This document shows, one piece after another, positions 38,764 through 58,782 of a DNA stretch of 64,000 bases (position 1 is its first letter; each line of letters starts with the position of its first letter). Both the position numbers and the translations under genes were made by a program. Origin of the DNA: Spirochaetota bacterium (lineage in GTDB: Bacteria > Spirochaetota > GWE2-31-10 > MWDO01); assembly GCA_031549085.1 (NCBI GenBank), contig JAVBQL010000020.1, positions 1,163 to 65,162 on the forward strand. The letters run 5' to 3'. Under the pieces are notes generated by a model. The model was not told the origin of the DNA and did no database searches. It saw only the letters and a list, made by a program, of their open reading frames with translations.

Positions 38764-38983
38764 CTTATAGCTTTTATTGCTATTTCAAGATTATACTGAT
38801 AAGTCTGTGATTTTTTATCTCTTTATGTTTATTCTTATACAAATATAGAGAGTGAATCTTTTTTATAATAAAAAAATTGTTGATTTTTCGATAAAATAGA
38901 TTTATATTTAACTATCTAAAAAAACAATTTAAGGAGAATACTTTACGATATTAAGTTCTCTTGTATCTTATATAAGGTTATTT

Positions 38984-39158
38984 AAACTAAAACAGATAGG
39001 CCCATAAATTTAAGTAGTTCTTTAGTTTTAGTTTCTAAAATGATAAGTTATTTTTATTCATAAGTGATTTAGTTTTGTACATTGTCATAAGTGATTCAAA
39101 AAAGATGTGCAAAACAATTGTTTTTTGCTTATTTTTTTGGGCCTTTCTGTTTTAGTTT
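38984..39158. repeat. 20-bp long-range inverted repeat with a GGCCCATAAA core, copy e
   Basis: AAACTAAAACAGATAGGCCC (38984-39003) / GGGCCTTTCTGTTTTAGTTT (39139-58), one mismatch. The interior carries TCATAAGTGATT twice. Confidence 0.6.
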
Positions 39159-39398
39159 TAAAGAATAATCTTTTAACCTCTTTTATCTATCTGTTTTTTT
39201 TGCAATTCTAATTGTCTTATAGTCATCCAATTCTTTTATTAACCTCTTTCACATTATAAATAGTTAGAAACACATATTTTAAATAAATAATATGTGTTAT
39301 AAACTGATTATCTTAAAAAAAAGTGTTACCACCCTTATTGATACTATGAAGCAACAATAAGTTGGTAACACTATATTCTTAAATACTATCTCTCTAAA

Positions 39399-42300
39399 TT
39401 AGAAGAGAGCATTTCTTATACCAAATCCTATTTGTGGTATCAGTCTACTGTTAACTTCAGAGGCAATGAAGTAGAATGCAGCCTCCATATAGAGTGCGAA
39501 CTTTCTAAATCCATAGTATCTCTCAACCTTAAAGAAGTCCCACTGGAACATAAAACCAGCAAGTAGTCGGTCAGTTCTCTTGATATCACTATTAGGCTGA
39601 AAAGATGCAGCCCATGTATCGAAGTCTTCTTGGCTACCACCAGAGAACCCACTCATCCAGAAGAACCCTGCACCAATCTCTATTGACCATGAGAAGTTTT
39701 TAGCATCTTCTCCAAAGAAGAACTCAAATGGGATATCAATTACACGGGCTAATATCTTCCCTCCAGCAGCGAAACCACTATATGCGGGGTAATATTGACC
39801 ATACTGCCATCCCCAATTTTCTGAGAATATAGGGTCATCAAGATTGATCCCCATTGCAACAAGGTTCTCTCTTGTTGGAGTCCAACCAAACATCGCCTCC
39901 AGACGCACTATATCATCAAAGAATGATAACCCAAACCCTGTTGATAGAAATGGTCCACCATAGACCTGTGCCCATAGGTACAACCCCTCAATAAATTTAG
40001 GGAGCTTACCAGCGTTTTTATCAAACTGCTTAAATAGAAGTTTAACTTCAGTTATATCATTATTATCTTCAGCGATACCCTTAATAACCACCTTCTCATT
40101 GACTTTTGCGTTCTCAAGAGGAGTATTGATTGTGACTGTTGGCAATTTTCTATCTATTGCTACTTTAAAGTATTGAATACTACTCTTATTTGTGAATGTC
40201 GTTGCCTTTAATTGAAGGGTATGATTTCCATCAAGTAGGTATTGGCTTTGAAGTCTAACAATCCAATCTTTAGTAATTCCTCCGAGTGCCTGTTCAAAAG
40301 TATTTCCATTGTCAATGGTTAGAGCGATATTTTTGATCTTGTTTTTAGCTTTTTGCTGATTAACAAGGCTCATAACCTCAAATTTTGAGACTGGAATTTG
40401 ATCTGGTTCTGGAAGCAGTTCTGGGTTCTTCACATACTTTTTCTTTAGTTGATAATATTTTTTCAACTGAAGCTCTTTTTTCATCTTCAATTCTATATTT
40501 CTTTCATAATATTGAGCTGTTCCCTTAAGCCATGGTCTATGCTCTATTGGCTTTCCATTTGTATGTGAAGTAACATTTATTATAGGACCTGACTCTTGAT
40601 AGTAGAATGTTCTTAAAATTGGTCCAGATGATTTTGGAGGGAATCTAGGATCGAGTTGCTTCTCTGTTGCAATAACTGTAACACTATGTAAACCTTCAGT
40701 TAGATCTCCTGCAGGGAAGGTATACTTCCATACATCAGTTCCCTCTGCCGTGAAGAATTCTCCATTATCAATTTTTACTTTAACAAATTCAAGTCCATCA
40801 TCATCATATGCCGTTCCATAAAACTCAATAATATCTCCCATTATGCTTTGGTTACTTTGTGGTTGGTCAAGCTCTACTGTTGGAAGATCTGACATAGGAT
40901 CTACCAAAAAGAATGAGCTCTTTTCTGTTACATTTCCTGCAATATCAACTGCTTTGATTAGGATATAATATTTATACATAGGAGGCCATCTTGTGGTATC
41001 AATCTCATAGTACCACGCCTCTTTTCCAATTGTTTCCGCATATCCATCCTCATCAGCAATTTCACTTGGAAGCATGGAGTTGTTGTTTTCATCAACTATT
41101 TTTATATATACATTATCTAAAGCGATGTTATCACTTGCACGTCCCTCTATTTTATAGATATTATTGACTGATTCTCCTACTCTAGGACGAATTATACCAA
41201 CCTCTGGAGGGGTGTTGTCGACGTTGTACATCGCAAATGAGTATGATTCACTTCCAGCCTTATCTCTTGCTCTAATCAAGAACTTTAATATTCCATCAGG
41301 CAGAGCCTTGGTATTTAAATAGTAGTTCCAGCTCTCTTTACCATTGGCCAACTGGAATGACCAACCATTATTGATCGATATTGAGACCTCTTCAATTCCG
41401 TTAGGGTCAACAGCTCGCCCTGTTACAATTCGCTCATCTTTCAGATAGCTTCCATTTGGAGGGCTAAATAGTGATATAACAGGATTTTCATAGTCAAGCT
41501 GGAATCTGACGGTCTTTATATCACTCTTGATTCCAAGGATATCTATCGCCTGAACCTCAATAATATGCTCTCCTGCAACCATTTTACCCTTATCTATAAA
41601 GATTTCCCAGTTTGTTCGATTTGCAGAGAGGGGAGCTTCATGCCATTTTGCATACTCTGTTCCCTTTGATTCAATGATATCTCCCTCATCATTTAGGTAG
41701 ATCTTTCCATGATCAAGCTTATACATAACAGATGCAATTTCATCATCATCAAGGGCTAGACCAGTAATATTTACAACATCACTGAATCTCTCTCCCTCAA
41801 TTGCAGGGCTATTGATGTATACTTTTGGTCTATCTGTTAATGTATCAAATATAATAGACGCCTTTGCTATTGAGGTGTTTCCAGCTCTATCTACTCCAAC
41901 AACATCTATACTTATTGGTTTTGGCTCTGTATTTGTAAGGTCAATGCCATTTATTGCATAGAGGTCATAGTAGCCTTCCCAATATGAGATTCCATTTGCC
42001 AATATCTTCTTTCCATTCAATAAGAAATATGTAGAGTCAACTCTATTGTTATCACTTGTTGTTCCTCTTATTGTAATATTACCATTTTGAGTACTGTTTT
42101 CTGATGGCACCAATATTTTAGTCTCTGGAGGGGTTGTATCATATGTTAGATGATAGATTAATGTTGTCTTTTTTCCAGCATTGTCTTCAACAATCAGAGT
42201 GACTGTATTGTCCCCCTCTTTTAACTGCTCTTTAGGGACATCTATAACAAACATTCTTCCATCATTAAAAAAGAGTCCATTAGTCATAGATTGATAATCT

Positions 42301-45281
42301 GTCAAGAGCATTGTTGTTTCTCTCTCTACAGGATCTATATTTGGAACTCTAACCCCAGAAATATTAGGATTTATCAATGTTGCATTTGTATATGTTGCAT
42401 CATTTGGATTTCCAGTAACATTAACAGCATATTTAAGTGTCAGGTTTTTAGGATCATCATCTTTTATAGAACCATATAGTTTTACGCCACTATTAAATGA
42501 TAAATTTGATGGAGGGTAGAGTATACTCGCTTTTGGAAATTCTTTGTCTACAATAACAGATGAGTTATAAGTATCGATTTTAGAGTGTTCTACTCTAGCA
42601 ACCAATGGAGTTGTTCCTATTACAAGGTTCCCCTTTATAGCATCATCTATCTCAAAGTACTTGAAGTAGTCTCCATTTATATTTTGAACGGCAAGCTCAC
42701 TGTTGCCCAATCTAACAGTTGCCTTTGCTGTTGCAAGAGGAGCATATATATAAAATCCACGGTTTGCATCAACATTAATCTTTTCATCAAAGTAGAAGCC
42801 AACATTTTTGTTTGTTGAATCAAGATATGGGCTTGCAACTCCCTCAAATGTAAGAGCTATTTGATCTGGAGGGTTATCAAAGTTTATAAGAATTGGATAT
42901 TTTGCCTCATTTCCAGCCCTATCTTTTAATGTGATATTTCCAGTATAGTTTAAGAGAGCTCCCTTCTCATTTTTTGTTTTAAGCTCTACTATTTTTGAGC
43001 CTGCTCCACTTATTGCAACTTTATCTTTGCCAGAAATTTCTATCTCAGCGGAGGCAAATGAAAAGTCATCTTCTAGAGTTATTTTAGTATCCTCTTTTAG
43101 CAATAAAACATGTTGGTTTTTATTGTTAACTTCAACAGGGACTCCAATTGCTTTTGGAGGAGTTGTATCAATTATTACAGGGACTCTTGTTATAGAGCTG
43201 TTTAAACCACTGTCAGTTGCCTCTATAACGATTAAATAGACCCCTTTAAGAGCATGAGAGATTGTTGTTGTAAGATTTGCAGAGAAATAGCCCGGTCTTC
43301 CTGCCATTGGTTGAAAATTGCTGTCCATGTACTCTACAACGCTCTTTTTAGCCTCTGGATCAAAAATTGAGAATCTGACACTCTTTAATGGTCCAAAGTT
43401 CTTTATGGTTACAGGTAGATTTATATTTCCATTTAATAGTTTTCCTGCCCATGACGTATTTATAGGTCCAAGTTCAACTTGAGGATACTCCTGCTTCTTC
43501 CAGAATGTTCTTGTTAGGGCATCACTTGGAGTATTTTTTTGGTCTAGTGCAGTTAAAGATAACTTATATTGTCCATCAGGGTATTTTTCACCATCTAGAC
43601 TAACATAGGAGTTTAGGGAGTATCTCGCATCTACACTTCTAGTTAGAATCTCCTCTCCAGCGCTATTGCTTATCTTGATCTCAACATCTTTTATATCACT
43701 CTCACTATCATAAACAGAGCCAAATATTGGCAGTATAGATGAGAATATTTGATTATCTTCAACTGATGATAGAGTTATCACAGGTTTCTCAAGATCTTTT
43801 TTTAGTGTTAGCTTCATAGATGTTACTGCTTTGTTTCCAGCAATATCAGTTACTGTTGCTATGAAGTTGTACACACCATCTTTATATAGATCTGGATCGA
43901 TATATTGAACAACAGGATCTCCAAGGTCAAAACCCCAGAGTGGATTTCCAGGTATAATTTCTACTGGATATGGGTTTTTAGGAGCTCCAGGCCCCTCAAT
44001 CTTTATCATAATATCTTTTATTGCGATATTATCTTCAGCATATCCATAGATCTTTGTTTTATTTCCTACAACAGAGTTTGGCTGAGGATTTTGAAAAGCA
44101 ATCTCTGGCTTTGTATGATCTATTGTAACACTTAATGAGGCAAACCCCTCACTTCCAGTCTTATCTCTTGCTTTTACCCACACAGTTTGTATTCCTTCAG
44201 GTAGCTCTCTTGTGTTTAATGTGAACTTAAAGTTTGCTTTTGTTCTATTTTTTTCGGTAGCACTCATGGTAGCACTTTTGAATGAGTATCTATCATCAGT
44301 AGAGAAGACAACCTCTTCAACACCATTATCATCAGCCACAGTACCAAATATGTTTACTTGCCCAGATAGAACCGCTCCAGATTGAATATTGGAGAATAGA
44401 ATAACCGGAGTCTTTCTATCTAGATTAAATGGAACAATATAATCTTTACTTGCAACACCCTTATGATCATATACTCTAAATCTTATAGAGTGCTTACCAT
44501 CTTTCATACTTGTTGTATCAAGCATATAGCTCCAATATTCTGTACCTGTGGCAACACGCTCCTCCTTCTCGTTATCAACGAAAAGAACAATCTTTCCAAC
44601 CTCATCATCATCATGGGCAGTACCTACAACCATTAGGTTTCCAGGGACACGTGCATTTTGTTGAGGATTTATCACAGTAAGAGATGGGATGTCAGATTTT
44701 GGGTCTATTTTGATGTTGATTGCAGCATCTTCGCTCCAGTTGTCCATGGTATCTTTTGCCTTTACAGCGATACTCCATGTACCGGGCTTTGTCTTTTCAA
44801 CTTCTGATATGTCGAATATTTTTGTCCAGTTGTATATACCATCTACATTGACATAACCATCAAATGGTTTTTTTATTTCCTCTTTTAGTTTTGCTAATAC
44901 ATTTTTTTTGTCTCTTATTTTTATTTCGAGGGCAGAAGCTTTTAATATTTCTGCATCACGCTCATCTATTAATTTTGCGATCTCCTCTTTCTTGTTTGTT
45001 GCGATTAGAGAATTTGTTAAATTAGTTCTTTTTTTATTTATTGCATCATATTCAACCATTAAAGCCTTAATTTCGGCCTTTACTTTTATCTCTTCCTCTT
45101 TCAAGACTTTTTTCTTCTCATTATACTCTTTTTTTGCTAAAGCACTTGTTGGCTTTGGATATCCTGTATCCTTCGGGGCAAATGTAAAGCCTCCGCCAGC
45201 ATCATCTTCTCCCCATAAGTATCCAGAGGTAAGAAACAACAGTGAGATTGAAATCAAAATCAAAACAAACTTTTTAAACAT
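39399..45281 (-). CDS. Giant (1960 aa) surface protein: signal peptide, coiled coil, ~15 Ig-like modules, C-terminal OM beta-barrel-like domain
   Basis: AGGAG lies 6 nt upstream of the ATG. Signal peptide: MFKKFVLILISISLLFLTSGYLWG. A K/E-rich heptad region spans residues ~45-140. Modules recur, e.g. DNTPPEVGIIRPRVGESVNNIYKIEGRASDNIALDNVYIKI. The last ~230 aa have alternating hydrophobic strands and end in ...GFGIRNALF. Confidence 0.9.
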   Translation of the reverse strand: MFKKFVLILISISLLFLTSGYLWGEDDAGGGFTFAPKDTGYPKPTSALAKKEYNEKKKVLKEEEIKVKAEIKALMVEYDAINKKRTNLTNSLIATNKKEEIAKLIDERDAEILKASALEIKIRDKKNVLAKLKEEIKKPFDGYVNVDGIYNWTKIFDISEVEKTKPGTWSIAVKAKDTMDNWSEDAAINIKIDPKSDIPSLTVINPQQNARVPGNLMVVGTAHDDDEVGKIVLFVDNEKEERVATGTEYWSYMLDTTSMKDGKHSIRFRVYDHKGVASKDYIVPFNLDRKTPVILFSNIQSGAVLSGQVNIFGTVADDNGVEEVVFSTDDRYSFKSATMSATEKNRTKANFKFTLNTRELPEGIQTVWVKARDKTGSEGFASLSVTIDHTKPEIAFQNPQPNSVVGNKTKIYGYAEDNIAIKDIMIKIEGPGAPKNPYPVEIIPGNPLWGFDLGDPVVQYIDPDLYKDGVYNFIATVTDIAGNKAVTSMKLTLKKDLEKPVITLSSVEDNQIFSSILPIFGSVYDSESDIKDVEIKISNSAGEEILTRSVDARYSLNSYVSLDGEKYPDGQYKLSLTALDQKNTPSDALTRTFWKKQEYPQVELGPINTSWAGKLLNGNINLPVTIKNFGPLKSVRFSIFDPEAKKSVVEYMDSNFQPMAGRPGYFSANLTTTISHALKGVYLIVIEATDSGLNSSITRVPVIIDTTPPKAIGVPVEVNNKNQHVLLLKEDTKITLEDDFSFASAEIEISGKDKVAISGAGSKIVELKTKNEKGALLNYTGNITLKDRAGNEAKYPILINFDNPPDQIALTFEGVASPYLDSTNKNVGFYFDEKINVDANRGFYIYAPLATAKATVRLGNSELAVQNINGDYFKYFEIDDAIKGNLVIGTTPLVARVEHSKIDTYNSSVIVDKEFPKASILYPPSNLSFNSGVKLYGSIKDDDPKNLTLKYAVNVTGNPNDATYTNATLINPNISGVRVPNIDPVERETTMLLTDYQSMTNGLFFNDGRMFVIDVPKEQLKEGDNTVTLIVEDNAGKKTTLIYHLTYDTTPPETKILVPSENSTQNGNITIRGTTSDNNRVDSTYFLLNGKKILANGISYWEGYYDLYAINGIDLTNTEPKPISIDVVGVDRAGNTSIAKASIIFDTLTDRPKVYINSPAIEGERFSDVVNITGLALDDDEIASVMYKLDHGKIYLNDEGDIIESKGTEYAKWHEAPLSANRTNWEIFIDKGKMVAGEHIIEVQAIDILGIKSDIKTVRFQLDYENPVISLFSPPNGSYLKDERIVTGRAVDPNGIEEVSISINNGWSFQLANGKESWNYYLNTKALPDGILKFLIRARDKAGSESYSFAMYNVDNTPPEVGIIRPRVGESVNNIYKIEGRASDNIALDNVYIKIVDENNNSMLPSEIADEDGYAETIGKEAWYYEIDTTRWPPMYKYYILIKAVDIAGNVTEKSSFFLVDPMSDLPTVELDQPQSNQSIMGDIIEFYGTAYDDDGLEFVKVKIDNGEFFTAEGTDVWKYTFPAGDLTEGLHSVTVIATEKQLDPRFPPKSSGPILRTFYYQESGPIINVTSHTNGKPIEHRPWLKGTAQYYERNIELKMKKELQLKKYYQLKKKYVKNPELLPEPDQIPVSKFEVMSLVNQQKAKNKIKNIALTIDNGNTFEQALGGITKDWIVRLQSQYLLDGNHTLQLKATTFTNKSSIQYFKVAIDRKLPTVTINTPLENAKVNEKVVIKGIAEDNNDITEVKLLFKQFDKNAGKLPKFIEGLYLWAQVYGGPFLSTGFGLSFFDDIVRLEAMFGWTPTRENLVAMGINLDDPIFSENWGWQYGQYYPAYSGFAAGGKILARVIDIPFEFFFGEDAKNFSWSIEIGAGFFWMSGFSGGSQEDFDTWAASFQPNSDIKRTDRLLAGFMFQWDFFKVERYYGFRKFALYMEAAFYFIASEVNSRLIPQIGFGIRNALF

Positions 45282-45695
45282 ATATTCTCCTGATTTTTAG
45301 AAATTTTCTAAAATTATTCAAAAAAAACTTCGCAAATAATATAAAAATGTAATTATACATCAATATATAGTCAATAAGCAATATAAATTAAGAACACAAA
45401 CAATTTTAATACTTAATACTAAGATAATTTAAATACTAAAATTTCGGAATGCTGCGTTTATTAGCTTTAAACCTTGTTTTTTGCTTACAAAACACTTAAT
45501 TTTGAAGACAAAAAACATATTTTTTTATAAATAAGTTACAAAACGGTTTTAATAATTGCTGTTCATTATAGTTTGTGCTCTACAAACAATAACATGCCAA
45601 TAGATACCTTATCTCAACATATTATCACCTAATTTTAAATAATATTCAATAAAAAGTGATATTTTTTTATAAAAATAAAAAAAATGAGAATTATG

Positions 45696-45723
45696 TTGAC
45701 TTTATAGATTATAGGATTATAAT
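45696..45723 (+). promoter_or_regulatory. Sigma70-like promoter candidate for the giant-lipoprotein operon
   Basis: TTGACT (45696-45701), N16, TATAAT (45718-45723). It implies a 5' leader of about 365 nt before ATG 46098. Confidence 0.4.
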
Positions 45724-46097
45724 ATGGTGGAGTAGTAGTGCTTTTTTACCTTTGGATAAGAAAATGTATCTATATTTTATGATTGGTTTTTGACAAGGCT
45801 TATGGTAGATGTATGCTATTTTGTTATTAAACCATCTATCTTTTTTTAATCTTGTCTTTTTTATCAGTTTTTAAAATATAATTACTATTTAAAGTTATAT
45901 TGTTGTATTTAACGATATATAATTTGGAAAAGTATCTTTTTTTTAGTATTTTAATAGAGTAATATTCTACATTTTAACTAATTATTTGATTTTTTTTTGT
46001 AAAATATTATATTTATGACACCATATTTTAATATGGACTTGAAATAATAAACAATAGATAGTATTAGCTTTAAGTATTATACTAAGGAGTTTTATAA

Positions 46098-49000
46098 ATG
46101 AGACAAAAACCTAAAAAATCTTTTTTTGTATCTGTTATGATTATATTGTTAACAATCTTCACTATTTTAGGTTGTAGTCAGGATGTTATGAATCCTCTCT
46201 TTGGTATGGGAAATAAACTCGATTCCGAATATCCAAAATTAAAAATAACCTCTCCCAAGGCTTCAAGCTTGCTTCCAAGATATTTTACAATTACTGGAAC
46301 GACAAGTGATGATATGGGTGTTGATACTCTAACCATTGTAGCGAAGAATAAGGCTGGAAATGAGGCAATAAACATCACGATGAATCCAGATAGTAAATGG
46401 TCTACAAACATTGATGCTATTGGGCTTGATGATGGTTCAAATAAGTTTATTTTTACCTTAAGAGATAAGTCTGGTAATACAGTAAGAGAAGAGTTGAGTC
46501 TAACCATAGATAAAACCGCTCCAGAGATAAAGGTCTTTAGCCCAGACCTTAGTGGGTATGCGAATGGGAATATTCCTGAAGTTAGTGGAGTACTCAATTT
46601 CTATGGGTTTGTTTCAGACTCCTACTCTGGAGTTAAGCCTAAAGACCCTGAAAATTGGATTCGTTTATATAAAGAGAGTGACCCTAGTTCGTTTCTAATA
46701 AATGAGGCGCTAGATAATGGAGATGGTTTGTGGCAAACGGATGTATCAGTAGATACTCTAACAAAGCCAGAGGGGGTCTATGTATTAGAAATTCTTTTTA
46801 AAGATAAATTGGGAAATCCACAGAATAATACTTCTCAGATATGGAAGATGAATATGAAGCAGGAGAATGATCATCCATCACTAATACTTCAAAACCCTAC
46901 TCCAGGGGCAAGTAACTCTTTTGAAACATCTGGACTCTTGCCAATATCTGGAATCGCCAAAGATAATAGAGGACTAAAGAAGGTTGATTATGTTCTTAAT
47001 AACAGCAGTGGACAACTTGCAACTCAAGGTTCACTTCCAGCATCTGGACTTCAATATGCCTTCTCAACAGTATTGAATCTAAAGAGCACCATATATGGCC
47101 CAAATGGGCTGCCCGATGATATGTATACATTGATTGTAACTGCATGGGATGAAGATTTAAGCAGGACTCCACCAATGTATTCTTCTCCCCAAGCAGTTGT
47201 AAGTATAAGTTTAAGTAATGATGTCCCATCATTTGATATTTTAACCAAAACCACTTCCCCAGTTGGGAAGACGCCAGAGGCTCTTACATACTTAAATAGC
47301 AGTTTCTATTTAACTACAAAGACATTAACATCAACTGCGGGGATGTCCTATGAAATTGTACAAAATGGGTCTGTAAAGAAAAGTGGAAGCATCGATTATA
47401 CTGGCTCTAATAATATATGTGAGACGGCTGTTCCCGTAAGCATTAGTGGGTTATCTGATGGAGCAATTGATGTCTATTTTATTGCTAGGGGAGCAAACGG
47501 AAAAGAGTATAAAGTCTCAAGAATCTACTATATAGATCAGACTCCTCCAACAGTAAAGATTATCACACCAGAACCCCCTATCGCTAGTAAACCGGGTCGC
47601 TATAATGGACCTTTGAAAATAGAGGGTAATGCCAGTGATGGAAATAGCATTGATAAAGTACATTTTAAACTATCAACAGCACCTGATATTGCGAGCTCAT
47701 GGAAACTAATGGATGGAACAAGCCACTTCTCCTACGAATATGCAACAGATGCAAATGGTGGTGATTTGGAGTCATTACATCATGTAGATAATGGAAATAC
47801 CTTTGATGTTACATTTGATGTAAGAGCAACAGATATTGCTGGAAATTATGGCTATGATCATTTGGGAATTACAATAGATCCAGAGACGGACTACCCTGTT
47901 CTCTCTCTGATATCTCCAGTTCCATTTGCACCAGGGCCAGGGAAAGATAATACTAGTGATTCAAAGTACCAAAATTTGAAGTACTCTGGAATGCTTACAA
48001 TAGCAGCTACATTAGAAGATGACGACTTTCCTCCAGCAAGTAACAGACCGCTTGTTATTGCAAGTCCAATGTCAGCGAAAGTAGAGATATTCAAATATGG
48101 GACCACTACAAAGGTGTTTTCATCACCAGAAATAAAAAACAATATGAATGTAATCCCAACCCCTCAAGATTTGTCAGCTGCACCATATGAAGATGGACAA
48201 AAATATACTATAAAAATTACAGCAAAAGATTGGCACAACATGCCAAGTAACACAATAGAGTTGGACTTTCAGGTCGATCAAAATGTTCCAAGAATCACGT
48301 TGGATAGTGTAACTGATTATCAATATAGAACTAATGAGGTCACTTTAAGCGGAGTTATTGAGGATGAGAATGAGGTAAAATCTGCTAAAATTAGTTTTAC
48401 TACTACAGGAGCTAACAAAGAAGAGACCTTTGATGTGAAGCTTACTCAAACTCAAACAGCAAATCCACCTTCTGTTCTTACCAACAAATATACATATAAC
48501 ATTGTCCTAAAAAAGGGCGGTGGACATACAGGATTTGATACAGCATTAGGGAAAAAAGCTGCAACTGCATCAGATTTGAGTTGGGGTGACAATGAGTGGG
48601 GTAATTCTCCTCAAAGATTTAGAATATCAGCAACTGACCAGACTGGGTTAGAGGGTTCTAGGATCGTAACAGTGAATATGGATAATCACACACCAAAAGT
48701 ATCTACTCTTACTACCAAGGTTGAGGGGGTTGATGTTCAGGGAACAGAGGCTATTCCTTACCTTTTGAAAAACGATAGTAATGGTAATGTAACTATATAT
48801 GGAACAGCAAGTGATCTGCCAAGCGCAGGAGTTGTCTATCCTTTAGGACTCACAAACAATATAAGGATAACAAGAGCGGTTAAAAACGCTGGCAGTTTTA
48901 TAAATGAAACTGAAGTAAAGCCTTATGGTGACAATTGTGTAGAGGGGAGCGGATTTTCAATAACTGGTACCTTCGCTTCATTCACTATGGGATGGCGTCC

Positions 49001-52000: not shown

Positions 52001-52310
52001 ATATTCTAATGAGGGATTGACTGGGGGGCAAACTGCGATAGATTTGGATAAAACCCAAAAACCTCATATAACTTATCTAAACAAGAGTAAGATTAATACA
52101 AAAGAGGCATTAAGATATGCTTTCTATACAGGAACTGCAAATAGTGCAACTGAATTATCAGACCCTTCAAAGTGGAAATATATGGTTGTTCCAAGTGAAG
52201 TAATGGTTAATTTGGAGAGAACGAGAGTAAGAGCTCCATATAGTGGTGAAAACAAGGTAGTTGTTGGATATAGAGGAGAGAACTTTATATATATAATAAA
52301 ATTGAAATAA
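46098..52310 (+). CDS. Giant (2070 aa) lipoprotein with Ig-like module array, IPT/TIG-like domain and C-terminal beta-propeller-like region
   Basis: AAGGAG lies 8 nt upstream. Lipobox FTILGC. Modules include IDKTAPEIKVFSPDLSG and IDQTPPTVKIITPEPP...GNASDGNSIDKVHFKL. C-terminal repeats include VHVAYQTTDGSLKYAYVTG and KPHITYLNKSKINTKEALRYAFYTG. Confidence 0.9.
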   Translation: MRQKPKKSFFVSVMIILLTIFTILGCSQDVMNPLFGMGNKLDSEYPKLKITSPKASSLLPRYFTITGTTSDDMGVDTLTIVAKNKAGNEAINITMNPDSKWSTNIDAIGLDDGSNKFIFTLRDKSGNTVREELSLTIDKTAPEIKVFSPDLSGYANGNIPEVSGVLNFYGFVSDSYSGVKPKDPENWIRLYKESDPSSFLINEALDNGDGLWQTDVSVDTLTKPEGVYVLEILFKDKLGNPQNNTSQIWKMNMKQENDHPSLILQNPTPGASNSFETSGLLPISGIAKDNRGLKKVDYVLNNSSGQLATQGSLPASGLQYAFSTVLNLKSTIYGPNGLPDDMYTLIVTAWDEDLSRTPPMYSSPQAVVSISLSNDVPSFDILTKTTSPVGKTPEALTYLNSSFYLTTKTLTSTAGMSYEIVQNGSVKKSGSIDYTGSNNICETAVPVSISGLSDGAIDVYFIARGANGKEYKVSRIYYIDQTPPTVKIITPEPPIASKPGRYNGPLKIEGNASDGNSIDKVHFKLSTAPDIASSWKLMDGTSHFSYEYATDANGGDLESLHHVDNGNTFDVTFDVRATDIAGNYGYDHLGITIDPETDYPVLSLISPVPFAPGPGKDNTSDSKYQNLKYSGMLTIAATLEDDDFPPASNRPLVIASPMSAKVEIFKYGTTTKVFSSPEIKNNMNVIPTPQDLSAAPYEDGQKYTIKITAKDWHNMPSNTIELDFQVDQNVPRITLDSVTDYQYRTNEVTLSGVIEDENEVKSAKISFTTTGANKEETFDVKLTQTQTANPPSVLTNKYTYNIVLKKGGGHTGFDTALGKKAATASDLSWGDNEWGNSPQRFRISATDQTGLEGSRIVTVNMDNHTPKVSTLTTKVEGVDVQGTEAIPYLLKNDSNGNVTIYGTASDLPSAGVVYPLGLTNNIRITRAVKNAGSFINETEVKPYGDNCVEGSGFSITGTFASFTMGWRPPAGFLDGVYRINVYAKDNALNETTIITDGAGKNVGTFVLQLDQNPPYITDVSLVYPTSNQVAYTGKIKYKVTAQDSGNISDTNNGIVKLEMYVDNETSPRGTQSYTPADNSAVSHTFELDTSLFPDNVEHVLKFVATDKITLNKVIAYSPAMIFDNSAPKISEIAFHTKDYVDSSGKPKNISAYSSYLTMDITIEDDFGIDTSKKPDVILTAKRKSGSSVLPALLPISLDSQLFNLNSTYYQVTDKKYTMSYSVPIDLFEILAANYDEYDKLTMKIFVQDRVGIGTYYTYDTDTNTIISVVEAPGSNATVANIIKPTNTDLKTYINRGDGVTLTVGKPDYSYIGPNNDDDDANTTQVKIAIGGSGAGGTERKLFVEIDGTTTKTIPLTTANPFSTYLTLNPGEIADGIHTFKFRLIAGEGIQKELTKTFYIDTTAPTLVITSVAAVPDSGYVNGSNISGKVRISGTYEDAHMGSMSIAQADIKLSLDGAVVPVDSANIDNATGGAWIFTYDWDTEGTGLAALVKNSIQIFATAKDLTDNKGQSANAVKNIVPYITDIVGNTAKDLVYPVRSYNGTIWANHNLEFSTNRKQQGVTTGVQIQIRGYNLKGSGNTTVSLAGTALTVESSTKQSVVARLAPTTSISGTVVLTAIGSNTTQANSATLYVWEGNRVGGGYATNDPGFIDMDLDNFGKAVFSYYRNHKVSGYESDDYATYRIKEEEPTAYRTINMVDPCFFSSVVFIPGNTGYSTRDGRGQLFIASCIDEWGTPSYTFFVEMDYTFNIGDTVFQSTSGNSGSPTQTGRWKVGLNKSGSSLNTAKYGSMSYYINGNGMRYIYTSIYDDDSRETGPNPRILIDVTGLGTGGTNTGTPHNLTIKQTQAAGDILFPATDVDVTNGGNLIYSYATKNNGLKLGSIACTTTASLGAGLVTPSLTGTEYTTSVDSAGNGQDNSLVSRYYTSAGAYANASSVHVAYQTTDGSLKYAYVTGYDGSSPVVNKATLELYSNEGLTGGQTAIDLDKTQKPHITYLNKSKINTKEALRYAFYTGTANSATELSDPSKWKYMVVPSEVMVNLERTRVRAPYSGENKVVVGYRGENFIYIIKLK

Positions 52311-52444
52311 TATCATAGAGGATTTATTGTATGCTCTGCTCTACAAAATAGTAGGGAGCGAAGAAATATAAAAAAAAGAAGTTTTAAGTAAAATGTGTTT
52401 TATAAAGAAGTTGTTTATTGTCTCTATTTTTGAGGAGGTTTATT

Positions 52445-55400
52445 TTGAAAAATAGATTTTTAACTAAAGGAATATGGCTTTTTGTCATAATTATTATATC
52501 TACTGTTTTTTTTACTACATGTGAAAACCCAACAAATGCATTTTTGGGAACAGGGAACCCAGCAGATACAGAACCTCCAAAACTTTCAATAACTTCGCAT
52601 AAAGATAGAGACTTGGTAAGCGGAGATATAGTTATCTCAGGTATTGCAACAGATGATATTCTTATTAAAGAGGTAAGATTATACTCATATATAGATAATG
52701 CAAGACAACTATTGCAAACAACAACAGTTGGTTGGGATCATGCATGGTCATTCCTATTAAATACAAGAGTGTTTGCAGATGGAACAAACATATTTGTTGT
52801 AGAGGCTATTGATGTTGCAACGCCTTCAAACCTTGCAGCAGAAAATCTTATATTAAGATTGGATAACTATGGTCCAACAGTTGTAATTAATAGTCCAAAC
52901 AATTCGACTGGCACACAGATGGGGCCTTTTTCTGTTGATCTTACATTGGTAAGTGTTAGGAACACCACTGAAGTAGAGTGGGAAGTATATGCAAAAAATG
53001 ATGAGTCCATAAAAATTTCTGGAACACGTTCAAATAGTGGAGTGGCTCTAGCTACCCCAGATAAATTTGGATACTCATTTATATTATCAGAGATTGTAGA
53101 AATATCTGGCAAAGTTGGCCCTGTCTATCCTGATGGATTTTTTGTGGGAGATATTGTTTTAAGAGTAAGAGCTAAAGATGATAAGGACAGATATTCGAAA
53201 GAGTGGACTGAGAAAGTAGTTGCTTTAAATTTTGACTCATACAAACCAGTTGTTTATATTAGCACACCGGTTGCAACAACTTCTGGAACGGCGAATACAT
53301 ATGGGGGCTCTGGAATAACTGCAACTGGGATGGTAACAAGTGACGCTCAATTGAAAGAACTTATTTTAGAGTTATCTTTCGCTAGTTCATCTACACACTA
53401 TGATGTAACAATAGATCTATCAGCGGACTCTTCTCCTGTAGAATTTAGATATCTTATAAGTGAAAAGTTGGGGGCACCAGGTTCACCTATTGAAGATGGT
53501 ACCTACAAAGTGAGAGGAAAAGCTTTTACAATGGGCGGAGTTGAGAGTGTATATACTCCATATTACTATTTTACGATAGACTCAAACTATCCTTCAGTTA
53601 CTTTCTCAAATCCTCAAGGAGGCTCTTGGGATAAGGGAGATGTGACTGTAATGGGGAATGCTACCGTTGGAGGAGGTGGAACTCTCTCCTCTGTTGCATA
53701 TAGTATTAATAATGCAAACGGTCCTTGGACACCTCTATCTCTAGGAGCTGGAGGTTCATTCTCTATTTTGGTTAATGGTGGGACTCTTATTAAGAGTGAG
53801 GTTATTGTCTATGTAAAGGCAATGAGGGGATCTGACTCAACAACAGGAGTATTGATATTTAATATTGATAATATAAGTCCAATAGTTAAAATACTGAAGC
53901 CAGGAACATCCGACACAGGTTTAAATCAAGTAATTACTGTTGAAGGGACAGCATCTGACACTGCTGATAGTCTTGGAGCAAAAGGAACAGTTAATAGTAT
54001 AAAAGCAGAAATAAAGAGGGCAGGAGATCTAAACTTTAGTGATCTTGTTGGTGTTACAATAAATGGAACAGAGAATTGGTATTTTAATTTTGATACAAGT
54101 TCATATGGTATAAATGGGAATGAGGATGTAACAATTAGAATTACTGGAACTGATCGTGTTGGAAACAGCAGCAGTGTTACTCAAGTTCTACATATAAATC
54201 AATTGGCAGATATTCCTTGGGTTGCGATAGATGAGACAAGCTTGTCTAATGGCAATGATAAATTATATGGGCTAATAACAGTAACAGGAGGCTCATTTGA
54301 TGATGATGGAGTTAGGGCTGTATATACTAAAGTTGTGCCATTAGGTGCTGATGTACTAGCTCATAGCTATACCACAGGATGGAGTGATAGTGATACATAT
54401 AAGTGGGAGAGAGCAAGTGGCACAACAGAGTGGTCAGCTAGAATAAATTGTGTTAATTATGCTCAAGGAGATCATATTTTATATGCATGTGCTTTAGATA
54501 TAAATGGCAAAGAATCATATTTTAGAAATGATATATCTTATAGATCACTTGGACCGGCTCCAGCTAACAAGCCTAGCCGTGACAAAGTTCCTTTTAGAGT
54601 AGATCCAAATAAACCAGTAGTTAGTTTTTATCTTGAACCGCCAACATCTAGTTCTGCGCCTCTTGAAAAAGATCATACTGTCTATGTTAAAACTAACTCT
54701 ATACTATATGGTAAAGCAACAAAAACCAATGGAGTTATTCAGAAGCTAGAGTTTATAATATCTGGAACAAATAGAATTGGTGGAGGAGCTCTGCCATTGT
54801 CCTATGCAATTGATAGTAATAGTGCACCTGTTGGAAGTGGGATAACAATAAGTGGAATGGGAACAGCAACAGTTAGCTTTACTTATACAGTTGCAACATC
54901 AATGTTTGCTGATGGTGATGTAGATATTTTGGTAAGAGCCACCGATGATGGAAAAAAGATAGATGGACAATCAGTTATATTCCAAGTTGATACTGTTGTT
55001 CCTATAGTAAAACTTATACAGCCTCTTGCAGGACATGTTCAGTTAAGCCAATATTTCGTTCTATCTGGTTCATCAGAAGATGCCCCTCCATCTAGTGGAT
55101 TGCTTAACACAGATGGTAAAGTGGTTTTTACACACACTAATACAGGAGAATCGTTTACATATATTACACCAATTCCAAGCCCTGTAAATGAGTGGACATT
55201 CAATGATCCTCTACAATCGAGCGTTAAAGATGGTCTATACACAATAACATTTACACAAGCAGATCGGGCAGGAAACTCGTCATCAACAAGTGTTACTAAT
55301 GTTAGATTGGCTAGATATCCAGCATATATTAATACTGGGGCTATAAATGGAGATACACTTCGAAATGGTGTATCAATCAAAAGAAATTCTACATATACTT

Positions 55401-58400
55401 TTAATCTTAAAGAAGATTCTGTTAATGATCAATATCCAGGCTTTAAAGAGATGAAAGTCTATCTATATGATCAAAATACTATTACAAATTATAGTGATTC
55501 AAGCCTTGTTCTATTGAACACAAAAACATGGACACAACCTAATACAGACACCAGTGCTACTCATGAGTTTACATATAATTATACAAGCTCACCCTCCTCC
55601 CCTCCAAAATATTTGATAGTAGAACTAACAGATAGGGCGGGCTATACAGCTAAAAAAGCCTATGATGTAAAGGTAGACTTTGTAGACCCTGTACATCAAT
55701 TTAAACTTACATCAGTTAAAGGGACACAGCCTCCAACAACAGTAATGCTTAACAATGGAAGTGGGGCTGGATATAGCAGCAGTTTATGGATTAAATTAGA
55801 TGCAATAGATAAAGATGGGGTTATTGCTCCGGGAATTAATGATCAGGACATGAGTGCTGCACAGATCTCTGTTGCACTTAGTTCTTATGCAACAGATCCT
55901 GCTGCAGATGCCTATACAACTATTAGAATGGGGGACTACTTTAAGAGGGATACGAAAGTTTACCATCAAAATGTTACTGGTGATACAAACTATTATCTTC
56001 ACTATAAGATCCCAGATCCTGCAGGAAATATTGCTAAAGGATATATAATATTAAAGAGAGAAACAAATCTTCCACAATTTAATTCTGTTCTTATTAATGG
56101 AGATACATACTCAAGCGCCACATTAGAGGAGACTATTGCTGGAACTAAACAACCAAAAACTATCTGGACTAAGAGTTTAAATATAACAGGAACAATTACT
56201 GTCCCTTCAGGGAACACATTGTCATCTGTGATTTTCTCAAAATTGGAATTCAATAGAGCAGATCACATAAATGATATTGCTACTGATAGCAGCGGAAATG
56301 TTGCAACAGGAAATAATTTTTCATATACAATTCCAGCTATCAGTGATACAGAGGGAAATGTTCATACAATTACTGCACTTGCAACATTAAATAATAATGT
56401 CAACTGGGATCAAACCATCGCATTTATATATGACAATGTTCCTCCAGTAATAAATAGTCTTAAGATAAAAGAGATCCCTAACAGTAATGATGGAAGGGTA
56501 TTTACATTAGATAGCAATAGAGTCCCTACAACAGTGGTTGCAGAATTAGATTCACAAAATGCTAGGATTTCAGGAAAAGTGCGTATTTTTGGAACATTCA
56601 GTGATAATTTGGGAGCAAAACAACCTGTATCAGATTTCAAATTGACTGTAAGTATTGATGGTACTGACTACCTTGTTCCTTCTCTAAATATAGAGAAAGA
56701 CCCTAGCGATAGTGATAAAAAATCATTCACATTCTACTTTGATTATGATTCAGCACTCTTTGGTTCTGTTAAAAAAGATGTTCAGGTAAGAGTGAAATTA
56801 GCAGATAAGGCAAAAAATGAGGCAACACCAAAAGCACTTAAAGTTAATATCGCTCCATATCTTCTATCGATTACAACAAATAGTGCTGTACAAGATGTAA
56901 GAAAATATAAGCAAAGTACAGACTCTTGGGAAAATATTAATGATAATATGAGATACTCATATAGAATTGATAGTGGGAGCATAACTGTAAAGGGCTTTAA
57001 CCTATATAGCCCTAGTTTTGTCCTAACATATGTTAGGGATGTTGATTCTGCTACAAGGACAATAACACCTACTACAAGAACAGATACCAGTATAACATTT
57101 AATCCGAGACCAGACTCGTTAACATATGATAGTAATTTGAAGAGTGGATATTTCTATATAACAACTGGAGCAGAGGCTTTAGAGACAAACAAAAAAGTTC
57201 TATATATATTTGATAACTATGGTGCAACTTCATATGATATGTTCGCAGATGAGCAGGACATGGTGATAGATCCATACAAAAATAGTGATAATCCTCTTGC
57301 AGTATTTGTATTGCAGAAACACTATCAAAATAATACTGCTCATCAAATTAAATCTAGATATTATCGTAGAGATAATTTTGCTTCTGGAGCGCAATCACAA
57401 ATACAAGGTTCAGGTCTATATAGAGGCTACGAAACAGATGTTGGCACTTTTTTAACTCTTGATGGGAACACAGATGGAGTTCTTGGTGTTGGCAAGGCCG
57501 GCTATAATTATATAACTCATGGATTTAATAGATATTGGTTTACAACAATAGCAAGAGACCCCTATTATACAACTGCTCTTCAAGTAAGTAATGGACAAAA
57601 AGACTCTGTTTATTATTTATACACATCTGATACAGAAAATATTGCTGGCAGTACGAGAGGAGCATTCGTATCTGGAAGTAGAGATTATTGGAATAGAATG
57701 GGAGACAACCCTTATAATTTTGCTGATAGTAATAACAAATATACAATAGCAGAGTTTAGCTGGTATGCGGACACAAATACTCCTATATTTATGCCAGTAA
57801 ATGACTGGTGGGATGCCGCTGATGGAACTCCTAGCCCAAGTTTGGGGGTAGGTAAGACCAAATTTTTAAGAAATGCTTGGAGAACAGGTGCTGTTGACTG
57901 GAATAATACTAATGGCACTGGAACAGATGATGGAACTCTTAGTAAAGACTGGTCCACTGTATGGGGGGACGTGGTTGCATATAAAGATAATATTTATACA
58001 GCTGGATATAATGCATCTTTATTGAAGACTACATATAGGAGAATTAAAAATCAAAATACAAACTCGCCTAAATATCCAGAAGTTAATCCGTTAGATCTTG
58101 GTTTTGCTGGAGAACAACCAACAATAGCTGTTGATCCAAGAAAGGCTGGAAATGCATCAACAGAGAATAGTGCCGCTTATATTGTTGGGGTGGATAATAG
58201 TAATAATGGAGCGGTGAAGCTTGCAAAGGTAACAAATGATTTGCTTGCTACAAGCAACTCAGAAAATGTAACTGTTCTTGGTAGTTCTGGAGGCTATCCA
58301 TCTATAGCAATTAGTGATGTAGGAATAATTCATCTTGTTTATCAAGATATTGGAGAGGGGACTATAAAATATACAAGATTTTCTGCAGATAATTGGAGTA

Positions 58401-58735
58401 GTATTCCTACAGAAAATTCTCCATCATATTTCTCAAATTATACAGTAACTCTCGATAATGTGGGTTCTCCAGGATATTTCTCCCATATTACTTTAGATAG
58501 TAGTGGAATGCCAATAATCACATATCTTACTATTGCGGAGGTTGGAACACCAAGTGCTGTAAAGATTGCTCGTGCTGTTGCAGATCCAACCAATGCTGAT
58601 AATTGGGAGATCGTAACTGTTCCAATGAAGAACAACATCTCTCTAATAAAAGTTAGAGGCTATAGCTGGAATGGAAAGATGATTGGAGCTGCAAAATCTA
58701 CATATCCAGAGGTATTTAGAGAGTACAATAAATAG
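52445..58735 (+). CDS. Giant (~2096 aa) lipoprotein, paralogue of 46098..52310
   Basis: Start placed at TTG 52445 (GAGGAGG 7 nt upstream; MKNRFLTKGIWLFVIIIISTVFFTTC). The track start is 52418. It shares with the upstream gene the N-terminal NP-x-F-x-G-x-GN..D.E.PKL.ITS.K motif, the Ig-like modules, NI(V/A)PY and a C-terminal region (IIHLVYQDIGEGTIKYTRF; MPIITYLTIAEVGTPSAVKIARA). Confidence 0.9.
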   Translation: MKNRFLTKGIWLFVIIIISTVFFTTCENPTNAFLGTGNPADTEPPKLSITSHKDRDLVSGDIVISGIATDDILIKEVRLYSYIDNARQLLQTTTVGWDHAWSFLLNTRVFADGTNIFVVEAIDVATPSNLAAENLILRLDNYGPTVVINSPNNSTGTQMGPFSVDLTLVSVRNTTEVEWEVYAKNDESIKISGTRSNSGVALATPDKFGYSFILSEIVEISGKVGPVYPDGFFVGDIVLRVRAKDDKDRYSKEWTEKVVALNFDSYKPVVYISTPVATTSGTANTYGGSGITATGMVTSDAQLKELILELSFASSSTHYDVTIDLSADSSPVEFRYLISEKLGAPGSPIEDGTYKVRGKAFTMGGVESVYTPYYYFTIDSNYPSVTFSNPQGGSWDKGDVTVMGNATVGGGGTLSSVAYSINNANGPWTPLSLGAGGSFSILVNGGTLIKSEVIVYVKAMRGSDSTTGVLIFNIDNISPIVKILKPGTSDTGLNQVITVEGTASDTADSLGAKGTVNSIKAEIKRAGDLNFSDLVGVTINGTENWYFNFDTSSYGINGNEDVTIRITGTDRVGNSSSVTQVLHINQLADIPWVAIDETSLSNGNDKLYGLITVTGGSFDDDGVRAVYTKVVPLGADVLAHSYTTGWSDSDTYKWERASGTTEWSARINCVNYAQGDHILYACALDINGKESYFRNDISYRSLGPAPANKPSRDKVPFRVDPNKPVVSFYLEPPTSSSAPLEKDHTVYVKTNSILYGKATKTNGVIQKLEFIISGTNRIGGGALPLSYAIDSNSAPVGSGITISGMGTATVSFTYTVATSMFADGDVDILVRATDDGKKIDGQSVIFQVDTVVPIVKLIQPLAGHVQLSQYFVLSGSSEDAPPSSGLLNTDGKVVFTHTNTGESFTYITPIPSPVNEWTFNDPLQSSVKDGLYTITFTQADRAGNSSSTSVTNVRLARYPAYINTGAINGDTLRNGVSIKRNSTYTFNLKEDSVNDQYPGFKEMKVYLYDQNTITNYSDSSLVLLNTKTWTQPNTDTSATHEFTYNYTSSPSSPPKYLIVELTDRAGYTAKKAYDVKVDFVDPVHQFKLTSVKGTQPPTTVMLNNGSGAGYSSSLWIKLDAIDKDGVIAPGINDQDMSAAQISVALSSYATDPAADAYTTIRMGDYFKRDTKVYHQNVTGDTNYYLHYKIPDPAGNIAKGYIILKRETNLPQFNSVLINGDTYSSATLEETIAGTKQPKTIWTKSLNITGTITVPSGNTLSSVIFSKLEFNRADHINDIATDSSGNVATGNNFSYTIPAISDTEGNVHTITALATLNNNVNWDQTIAFIYDNVPPVINSLKIKEIPNSNDGRVFTLDSNRVPTTVVAELDSQNARISGKVRIFGTFSDNLGAKQPVSDFKLTVSIDGTDYLVPSLNIEKDPSDSDKKSFTFYFDYDSALFGSVKKDVQVRVKLADKAKNEATPKALKVNIAPYLLSITTNSAVQDVRKYKQSTDSWENINDNMRYSYRIDSGSITVKGFNLYSPSFVLTYVRDVDSATRTITPTTRTDTSITFNPRPDSLTYDSNLKSGYFYITTGAEALETNKKVLYIFDNYGATSYDMFADEQDMVIDPYKNSDNPLAVFVLQKHYQNNTAHQIKSRYYRRDNFASGAQSQIQGSGLYRGYETDVGTFLTLDGNTDGVLGVGKAGYNYITHGFNRYWFTTIARDPYYTTALQVSNGQKDSVYYLYTSDTENIAGSTRGAFVSGSRDYWNRMGDNPYNFADSNNKYTIAEFSWYADTNTPIFMPVNDWWDAADGTPSPSLGVGKTKFLRNAWRTGAVDWNNTNGTGTDDGTLSKDWSTVWGDVVAYKDNIYTAGYNASLLKTTYRRIKNQNTNSPKYPEVNPLDLGFAGEQPTIAVDPRKAGNASTENSAAYIVGVDNSNNGAVKLAKVTNDLLATSNSENVTVLGSSGGYPSIAISDVGIIHLVYQDIGEGTIKYTRFSADNWSSIPTENSPSYFSNYTVTLDNVGSPGYFSHITLDSSGMPIITYLTIAEVGTPSAVKIARAVADPTNADNWEIVTVPMKNNISLIKVRGYSWNGKMIGAAKSTYPEVFREYNK

Positions 58736-58749
58736 AGAAATAATAATTT

Positions 58750-58782
58750 AAGCTCTCTTTGAAAAAAGAGAGCTTTTATTAT
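58750..58782 (+). terminator. Rho-independent terminator closing the two-gene giant-lipoprotein operon
   Basis: AAGCTCTCTTT-GAAAA-AAAGAGAGCTT, followed by TTATT. It starts 15 nt after the stop at 58735. Confidence 0.7.

Follow-up and report, generated by a model that had tools for sequence, protein, structure and literature searches.

Fibrillar adhesins are defined by a stalk, a terminal non-stalk domain and an anchor, and a survey of fibrillar adhesin-like proteins found that about half of them have no known anchor (PMC8286594). In spirochaetes, the Lig proteins are surface adhesins with a lipidated N-terminal Cys followed by a series of non-identical immunoglobulin (Ig)-like domains, to which LigB and LigC add a non-Big_2 C-terminal extension (PMC7821625). 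Here we analyse a 64-kb stretch of contig JAVBQL010000020.1 from a Spirochaetota bacterium (the window), about 30% of which is filled by three giant open reading frames (ORFs), P1, P2 and P3. Two of them, P2 and P3, form a conserved tandem of paralogous genes, which P1 accompanies in some lineages, and all three products show architectures that suggest fibrillar-adhesin-like envelope proteins. The genes are among the largest of their genomes and are conserved in a clade of uncultured Spirochaetales, where they carry no informative database name; we define from them three uncharacterised families, a predicted barrel-anchored Ig rod and two paired propeller-headed lipoproteins.

A conserved tandem of giant genes and a loosely linked third

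The P1 gene (39399..45281, minus strand), delimited by its ORF and Pfam matches, encodes a 1960-residue Ig-array protein with a predicted C-terminal outer-membrane (OM) barrel. An AT-rich intergenic region of 816 bp (45282..46097), read from the sequence, separates it from the divergently oriented P2 gene (46098..52310, plus strand; ORF and full-length orthologues), which encodes a giant lipoprotein of 2070 residues, family A. The P3 gene (52445..58735, plus strand), assigned from its ORF, its ribosome-binding site (RBS) and the database entry P0033, encodes a second giant lipoprotein of 2096 residues, family B, and is followed by an intrinsic-terminator-like hairpin (58750..58782, plus strand) that was read directly from the sequence. 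The first-pass annotation had described this layout correctly, with ORFs of 1960, 2070 and ~2096 residues, the 816-bp divergent spacer, a 134-nt gap between P2 and P3 and a terminator at 58750.

With P2 and P3 as queries, word-indexed homology searches recovered nothing but the queries themselves and weak Ig-domain matches. This orphan appearance is a sensitivity artefact. An exhaustive HMMER scan shows seven proteins of ~1,870–1,940 residues that align end to end with P3 at 31–35% identity, and family patterns run against metagenomes and the genomes of species representatives identified the loci L009–L017. All four genome-derived loci (L009–L012) come from uncultured Spirochaetales. P2 orthologues are found in eight other lineages, at full length (~2,100 residues) and 27–31% identity to P2 of the window. 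In each of the seven informative lineages, namely those in which the DNA downstream of the P2 orthologue is visible, P3 directly follows P2 on the same strand (the window, L009, L010, L011, L012, L013 and L016; L012, L014 and L018 are the same organism, of the GWE1_32_154 lineage, and are counted once). Protein identity across these tandem lineages is 27–51%, and in L009–L012 the called ORFs of P2 and P3 either overlap or are separated by only about 6 nt. These results carry a caution of method: the word-indexed search suggested orphans, which the exhaustive HMMER scan and the genome pattern scan overturned, and at face value the orphan result would wrongly have spoken against the co-occurrence of P2 and P3.

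The linkage of P1 is patchy. A P1 orthologue adjoins the pair in three lineages and in two orientations: P1 is divergent from P2>P3 in the window, co-directional in the GWE1_32_154 lineage (P1>P2>P3) and upstream of P2 in L005 (P1>P2), where the contig ends in a cut downstream gene that is a P2 orthologue. L005 was one of the first six P1 contexts, all of which had looked stand-alone before its P2 orthologue was identified. In addition, the assembly GCA_964471825 holds all three genes, with P1 on another contig. No P1 gene lies upstream of P2 in four lineages (L010, L011, L015/16 and L017), and a further seven P1 orthologues are solitary, with unrelated genes around them, so that P1 is unlinked in most lineages. 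Apart from the giant genes themselves, no neighbour is conserved across the compared loci, whether an accessory or an assembly gene. FlaA, FlgI and FliS are among the flanking genes on related contigs, which confirms their hosts as spirochaetes.

P1 repeatedly adjoins the pair, in two orientations and at 41–51% identity between P1 proteins, in loci where all other synteny is gone. This exceeds chance expectation and points to a functional but not obligatory association of P1 with the P2/P3 pair. What is conserved at the locus is the pair, and the third gene is loosely associated with it. The co-occurrence test proposed in the first-pass annotation, a conserved trio, succeeds for the P2>P3 tandem and, in three lineages, for the adjacency of P1, and fails for the four P2 and seven P1 lineages in which P1 is unlinked.

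P2 and P3: predicted lipid anchors, stalks and heads

BLAST comparison of P2 with P3 shows only short colinear similarities. By contrast, alignment of the two family profiles with hhalign covers 1670 columns (probability 100%, E 7e-118), and because the alignment has this span P2 and P3 are identified as colinear full-length paralogues from an old duplication. Their N termini display a lipoprotein signal followed by a short post-Cys tether, both delineated from family alignments. In P2 (46098..46235, plus strand), the putative lipidation site Cys26 (...TILGC) follows a hydrophobic h-region, is invariant across the P2-family alignment A7 and precedes the tether CSQDVMNPLFGMGNKLDSEYP. In P3 (52445..52582, plus strand), the lipobox Cys (...FFTTC; 52520..52522) is invariant in 8/8 sequences of alignment A4, being Cys35 when counted from position 52418 and Cys26 when counted from 52445, and precedes the tether CENPTNAFLGTGNPADTEPP. 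In the two families, 17/17 sequences carry the tether motif C-x(2-6)-[FLY]-x-G-x-G-x(2,3)-D-x(3)-P. It lies at 46173..46235 and 52520..52582 in the window and recurs in L009–L012 and P0036–P0042, in families that are otherwise only ~20% identical. It may act as a signal for sorting, export or docking.

The anchor is followed in each lipoprotein by a stalk of about 15 β-sandwich modules, delimited by an iterated profile and Pfam (P2 residues ~46–1520, 46233..50657; P3, 52577..56854; both plus strand). Beyond the stalk lies a large non-Ig C-terminal domain in both proteins, as the first-pass annotation had stated. An AlphaFold2 model of the last 626 residues of P3, computed together with eight relatives, is all-β (predicted template modelling score 0.78) and shows a sandwich followed by a propeller. 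The sandwich is IPT-like (model residues 1–~95; 56855..57139, plus strand), with eight strands and predicted local distance difference test (pLDDT) values of ~60–87. The propeller (57149..58732, plus strand), of lectin/sialidase type by AlphaFold2 and Foldseek, has about 7 blades, a number estimated from the strand list alone. In P2, a sub-threshold match to Pfam TIG (E 0.0044, 17.4 bits versus a cut-off of 20.9) suggests an IPT/TIG-like domain at residues ~1562–1625 (50781..50972, plus strand), which aligns with the all-β N-terminal part of the P3 model. The remaining C-terminal domain of P2 (residues ~1636–2070; 51003..52307, plus strand) is presumed to be a β-propeller from its colinearity with that of P3 in profile–profile and BLAST comparisons.

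A Foldseek search shows that the P3 propeller is most similar to the seven-bladed fucose lectins PLL/PHL of Photorhabdus (E 1e-7, TM-score 0.60–0.64, 8–9% identity), with further matches to bacterial sialidases and to the GH145 enzyme BT3686. At the sequence level, the exhaustive HMMER scan with P3 gave 242 relatives, most of which match residues 440–600 repeatedly, and the remote relatives of this segment that were checked carry Pfam BNR_4 (PF15892). The PF15892 profile itself has no match in P2, P3 or their close family, and Asp-box motifs are absent from the C-terminal 620 residues of P2, P3 and four orthologues. Searches of PDB sequences, run with single C-terminal domains as well as family profiles, gave nothing meaningful, and Pfam and NCBIfam searches of these domains gave only the sub-threshold TIG match; an alignment of just two C termini, those of P2 and P3, was too poor to serve as a profile. 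Each family has its own invariant propeller motifs, NRWR, DWS..WGD, YRRL and IH.VYQD in the P3 family and DEW and YDDDSR in the P2 family.

P1: an Ig-like array with a predicted C-terminal barrel

P1 differs from the pair in its anchor. Inspection of the translation suggests a signal peptide at residues 1–24 (MFKKFVLILISISLLFLTSGYLWG; 45210..45281, minus strand) without Cys, and the entire protein contains no Cys residue. A Lys/Glu (K/E)-rich segment follows at residues ~47–140 (44862..45143, minus strand), which by composition is coiled-coil-like; its sole match is the APG6_N coiled-coil, below threshold, and among P1 orthologues its length ranges from absent to about 400 residues. The Ig-like array, delimited by the iterated profile and Pfam, spans residues ~145–1763 (39993..44849, minus strand), where the profile finds 12 modules and there is space for about 16–17. 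A K-rich helical insertion (YYERNIELKMKKELQLKKYYQLKKKYVKNPE) is located within the penultimate module (residues ~1575–1625; 40407..40559) and is kept in all orthologues seen, including ~1,740-residue relatives from Treponema sp. In the module ahead of the barrel (residues ~1708–1763; 39993..40160), only positions 1–38 of the 70 of the Big_7 profile are matched; this half-domain is modelled with low confidence and the barrel follows it directly.

The C-terminal domain (residues 1764–1960, ending ...GFGIRNALF; 39402..39992, minus strand) is predicted to be an 8-stranded β-barrel. An AlphaFold2 model built with 20 homologues shows eight long amphipathic strands, with pLDDT values mostly of 74–92 in the strand blocks and dips to 41–66 in the loop region around residues 171–200. 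The antiparallel amphipathic strands and the C-terminal aromatic residue that characterize 8-stranded OM barrels are both seen in this predicted model. This ~200-residue domain is present in nearly all relatives examined, most of which end in an aromatic residue, mostly Phe, and a few in short extensions. No Pfam match was obtained at E≤1 among 20 family members, and neither sequence nor family profile found a meaningful match in the PDB; by Pfam and PDB profiles, the domain does not belong to the OmpA_membrane, OMP_b-brl, OmpW or Ail_Lom families. The first-pass annotation's claim that the three proteins differ in their anchors is thus supported by the invariant lipobox Cys of P2 and P3 and by the AlphaFold2 barrel of P1, with the P1 signal peptide and K/E stretch coming from inspection only.

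Full-length orthologues of P1 form about 16 clusters at 35–67% identity, and further relatives of ~1,640–2,200 residues, two of them labelled Treponema sp. (~1,700 residues), share ~25% identity over part of their length. The closest relative, P0002 (JGI, 1218 residues, 67% identity), does not have the central ~740 residues (P1 residues ~400–1140), which indicates that module number varies within the family. A giant archaeal Ig-like protein, P0032/P0035 (Desulfurococcales archaeon, 2218 residues), displays Big_7-type modules and, as P1 does, a faint match to PF27332 'TP_0781'. We discarded PF27332 as a sign of a barrel or as a spirochaete-specific feature, since the match is a faint precomputed one that is also found on this archaeal Ig protein; it is probably a β-sandwich. 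The sole paper found to mention TP0781 is a genome comparison.

A module type common to the three proteins

Pfam identifies the modules of the three arrays very unevenly. P1 matches Big_7 (E 3.8e-61) together with Big_13 and Big_3_3, P2 has one Big_7 match only (residues 46–115, E 1.1e-11) and P3 one Big_13 match only (E 3.7e-6). A profile seeded from P1 residues 196–290 and iterated over P1, P2 and P3 recovers 27 modules, 12 in P1, 8 in P2 (7 of them solid) and 7 in P3. By these profile matches, which go far beyond chance, a Big_7-type Ig-like module is common to the three proteins, and the stretches between detected modules are presumably more divergent β-sandwiches. The first-pass annotation had proposed such shared modules together with a recurring boundary signature. 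The common module is borne out, and both quoted examples of the signature are present (P1 1354 and P2 479); the signature itself is looser than proposed, as its strict regular expression matches twice in P1, five times in P2 and not at all in P3.

No DNA-level repeats were found between 39 and 59 kb. The region therefore has no recent duplications or cassette-type variation, and its modules are ancient rather than recently amplified.

Interpretation and alternatives

We consider that there is about an even chance that the locus gives this uncultured Treponema-like spirochaete three envelope proteins of the fibrillar-adhesin-like type. The P2 and P3 genes descend from an ancient tandem duplication and are probably co-transcribed. 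Each of the two proteins would be exported by the Sec pathway, lipidated on its conserved Cys and tethered to a membrane, from which a stalk of about 15 Ig-like/β-sandwich modules would reach out and present the IPT-like domain and the ~seven-bladed propeller at its far end. The propellers might bind carbohydrate on particles, on other cells or on the cell's own envelope, and what keeps the two proteins together may be that they have two different specificities or that they form a heteromeric pair with cooperative heads. P1, which belongs to a wider spirochaete family, would be a separate, barrel-anchored rod. Behind its signal peptide, a K/E-rich tip of variable length would lead into about 16 Big_7 modules, followed by an 8-stranded barrel putatively inserted into the OM by the β-barrel assembly machinery (BAM); its gene is often, not always, kept beside the pair.

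Several points weigh against this reading. Surface exposure of the three proteins is an assumption, their hosts being uncultured. The identity of the P3 propeller with lectins and sialidases is only 8–14%, the best Foldseek matches of the P1 barrel (OmpA-TM, Ail, OmpX and NspA) are weak (E 2.6e-3, TM-score at most 0.49), the profile that finds the modules was trained on P1, P2 and P3 themselves, and the P1 gene is unlinked to the pair in most lineages. In addition, no export route is visible for the ~1,750-residue array of P1. An even-stranded barrel has both its termini on the periplasmic side of the membrane. In treponemal OM proteins whose barrel is C-terminal, the N-terminal domains are periplasmic (PMC8407342). 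The topology of an 8-stranded barrel and the location of these treponemal domains together suggest that the P1 array may not lie outside the cell.

The P1 array could instead hang into the periplasm, maybe along the cell cylinder, with peptidoglycan glycan or some other polymer of the envelope as the ligand of the P2 and P3 propellers. The three proteins would then be a scaffold or tether that links the OM to the cell wall, or sets the spacing between them, in a spirochaete without Braun-type lipoprotein. Many treponemal lipoproteins are periplasmic, the usual topology rule for an 8-stranded barrel puts the P1 N terminus in the periplasm, and no 12-stranded autotransporter barrel, type I secretion system (T1SS), type IX secretion system or usher is present. 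A periplasmic N-terminal part joined to a C-terminal barrel is, moreover, the arrangement of Tpr/MOSP and BamA (PMC8407342; PMC5643300). We regard this periplasmic arrangement as a serious alternative, though an unlikely one. Arrays of about 15–17 Ig modules would exceed the width of the periplasm several-fold, and the stalk architecture is otherwise typical of extracellular proteins (PMC8286594). The N-terminal tip of P1 is very variable in length among orthologues, as exposed tips tend to be, and flagellar genes occur near P1 orthologues no more often than by chance. If P1 were periplasmic, it would be an unusual envelope scaffold.

It is still less likely that P2 and P3 are cell-bound glycan-processing enzymes, with catalytic propellers of the sialidase or GH145 hydrolase/lyase type that the stalks hold off the cell toward polymeric substrates. 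Bacterial sialidases and GH145 BT3686 are indeed among the Foldseek matches, but the top TM-scores belong to non-catalytic lectins. Similarly, remote sequence relatives carry BNR_4, but Pfam and PDB sequence searches gave no match, either with the proteins or with the family profile. The invariant charged or aromatic propeller motifs that each family has of its own also favour this reading, but the Asp-box occurs in no member tested, and conserved genes for sugar uptake or catabolism are absent from the vicinity.

More doubtful again is the proposal of the first-pass annotation that the proteins assemble into one coat, fibre or surface apparatus, of which P1 would be the OM-anchored subunit and P2 and P3 the lipid-anchored ones: adjacency of all three genes in three divergent lineages and two gene orders, their joint presence in GCA_964471825, the common module type and a conserved P2/P3 tether that could be a docking site would favour it, but P1 is unlinked in four P2 and seven P1 lineages, the P1 family reaches Treponema sp. 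relatives known from P1 matches alone, conservation does not extend to any gene for assembly, chaperones or secretion, and the trio is not obligatory. Equally doubtful is a speculative variant in which P2/P3 and P1 would physically interact in a spirochaete-specific heteromeric envelope structure. In that variant the tether would be a docking or export signal read by a P1-type barrel or another OM factor, and the Ig rods would build a fibre or lattice, at the surface or in the periplasm, that has no currently known protein components.

Under the fibrillar-adhesin-like reading, and if the propellers do bind glycans, the P2/P3 pair would be a plausible determinant of the attachment of free-living, gut or digester spirochaetes to particles or partner cells.

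Gene boundaries, control sequences and neighbouring genes

The P3 frame is open from a TTG at 52418, which would give a protein of 2105 residues. The true start is likely to be the TTG at 52445, since an RBS (GAGGAGG) stands before it, and the resulting 2096 residues equal the length of the database entry P0033; the 134-nt gap to P2 is counted from this position. An AAGGAG stands before the ATG of P2. The terminator after P3 has a GC-containing stem of 10 bp (AAGCTCTCTT / AAGAGAGCTT), the loop TGAAAA and a T-run (TTTATTAT). Within the P1/P2 spacer, the best sigma70-like site on the plus strand (45696..45723) matches 11/12 positions; a promoter scan of the spacer gave a count of sigma70-like sites equal to the shuffle expectation, and these matches therefore do not demonstrate promoters. 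Downstream of the P1 stop codon lies a 1.1-kb AT-rich, ORF-poor stretch (38304..39398), and a small bidirectional hairpin (39390..39409) overlaps the stop codon itself.

The whole window is AT-rich (26–38% GC). The three giant genes have 35–38% GC versus 26–33% in most other parts, with two 2-kb segments outside them reaching 34–35%. Amino-acid composition or foreign origin could be the cause of their higher GC. No tRNA genes or Rfam matches were found in the window.

The neighbours of the locus include ParA-like, WG-repeat, MORN-like and SNase genes. As the first-pass annotation had stated, genes for a secretion ATPase, an usher, a sortase or a glycosyltransferase are absent from its immediate surroundings, and the two genes directly downstream (58933..59520 and 59630..60592) encode small secreted repeat proteins. 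Their repeats read LP(D/N/T)GQxVK...Y(Y/F) and are MORN_2/YwqK-like by eye; they have no Pfam match at E≤0.001 and do not lie beside the P2–P3 pair in other lineages. Four paralogous WG_beta_rep (PF14903) proteins, with E values down to 1e-81, are encoded at 24457..25656 (minus), 33914..34498 (plus), 60979..62394 (plus) and 63150..63812 (minus). A 911-residue NHL-repeat propeller protein (19200..21935, minus) and a 324-residue protein with a sub-threshold MORN_2 match (21974..22948, minus; 29.3 bits versus a cut-off of 29.6) add to the repeat-protein content of the window. Upstream of P1 are a LexA-like repressor with helix-turn-helix and S24 peptidase domains (32463..33170, plus), a ParA/MinD-like AAA_31 ATPase (36353..37288, plus) and an unannotated ORF of 328 residues (37317..38303, minus), a group that could be a mobile-element remnant.

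Comparison with known systems

Pfam, NCBIfam and PDB searches gave no match to a characterised S-layer, RTX or autotransporter family, the kind of match that the first-pass annotation had named as refuting. RTX/LapA-type giant adhesins, which have C-terminal RTX nonapeptide repeats and a T1SS (ABC, MFP, TolC) encoded close by, were set aside for want of a HemolysinCabind match and of a T1SS among the neighbours, the NCBIfam Ca_tandemer match being sub-threshold (42 bits versus a cut-off of 50); S-layer proteins were set aside since Pfam and NCBIfam show no SLH or other known S-layer domain. Literature searches on Big_7, on giant Ig lipoproteins of spirochaetes and on surface structures of T. 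primitia returned nothing specific. The statement in the first-pass annotation that no described system could be named was overstated, since each protein fits the fibrillar-adhesin scheme (PMC8286594) and P2 and P3 parallel the Lig lipoproteins (PMC7821625).

Like type Va and type Ve autotransporters, P1 combines a predicted OM β-barrel with a long passenger-like region, and the intimin/invasin passenger is also an Ig-like array. Autotransporter barrels, however, have 12 strands, a pore for the linker, which is α-helical in type Va, and the Pfam domains Autotransporter or IAT_beta, and that of type Ve is N-terminal. A type Va assignment was rejected, as Autotransporter (PF03797) has no match in 20 members at E≤1 and 8 strands are modelled, and so was an inverse autotransporter, as the P1 barrel is C-terminal and neither IAT_beta nor Big_1 is matched. 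The treponemal Tpr/MOSP proteins share with P1 a spirochaete origin and a non-barrel N-terminal part ahead of a C-terminal barrel (PMC8407342, PMC5643300). They belong to another fold family, P1 has no MOSP domains, and Tpr N-terminal domains are small and periplasmic and are not Ig arrays. In strand number, amphipathic strands and terminal aromatic residue, the P1 barrel resembles the 8-stranded OM barrels of the OmpA N-domain, OmpX, Ail, NspA and T. pallidum TP0126/0479/0698/0733 (PMC8407342). These barrels show no sequence similarity to P1 and stand alone or, in OmpA, carry a C-terminal periplasmic domain. We know of no other 8-stranded barrel with a 1,750-residue N-terminal Ig array.

The C terminus of P3 shares its predicted fold with PLL/PHL lectins and with sialidase/BNR_4 propellers (GH33, GH145), with Foldseek E values of 1e-7 to 1e-5 and a TM-score of up to 0.64, normalised to target length. 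It differs from them in having no Asp-boxes and no Pfam match and in being fused to a ~1,500-residue lipoprotein stalk. PLL/PHL lectins have repeated sugar-binding sites between their blades. Membership of the GH33 sialidases, which bear Asp-boxes (S/T-x-D-x-G-x-x-W/F/Y) on a six-bladed propeller, was rejected, since this motif was not found in P2, P3 or four orthologues.

As spirochaete lipoproteins with a putatively lipidated N-terminal Cys and an Ig-like array, P2 and P3 resemble the leptospiral LigA, LigB and LigC (PMC7821625). However, Lig domains are Big_2 (PF02368), which has no match at E≤0.01 in P1, P2 or P3, and a Lig protein has 12–13 domains and a Big_5-like extension, whereas P2 and P3 have an IPT-like and propeller head. 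Lig proteins belong to pathogenic Leptospira rather than to free-living uncultured Spirochaetales, no sequence homology to them was detected, and they form no paired-paralogue operon of the P2/P3 kind. Lig membership was accordingly rejected: the Cys at the lipidation site is found in P2 and P3 only, and the Big_2 array in none of the three.

There is also a parallel with the fibrillar adhesins of Monzon et al. (2021), since P1, P2 and P3 are each a long chain with a tandem β-sandwich stalk, a candidate terminal domain and a predicted anchor at the opposite end (PMC8286594). The stalk is seen in all three by Pfam and the module profile; the anchors are in silico assignments, an invariant lipobox Cys in P2 and P3 and a predicted barrel in P1. 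Opposite the anchor, P2 and P3 carry a propeller of lectin-like fold, predicted for P3 and presumed for P2, and P1 only its K/E-rich tip. Neither an 8-stranded C-terminal barrel nor a lipobox is among the anchors listed in the survey (PMC8286594), and the C-terminal barrel of P1 is thus a candidate new type of anchor for fibrillar adhesin-like proteins.

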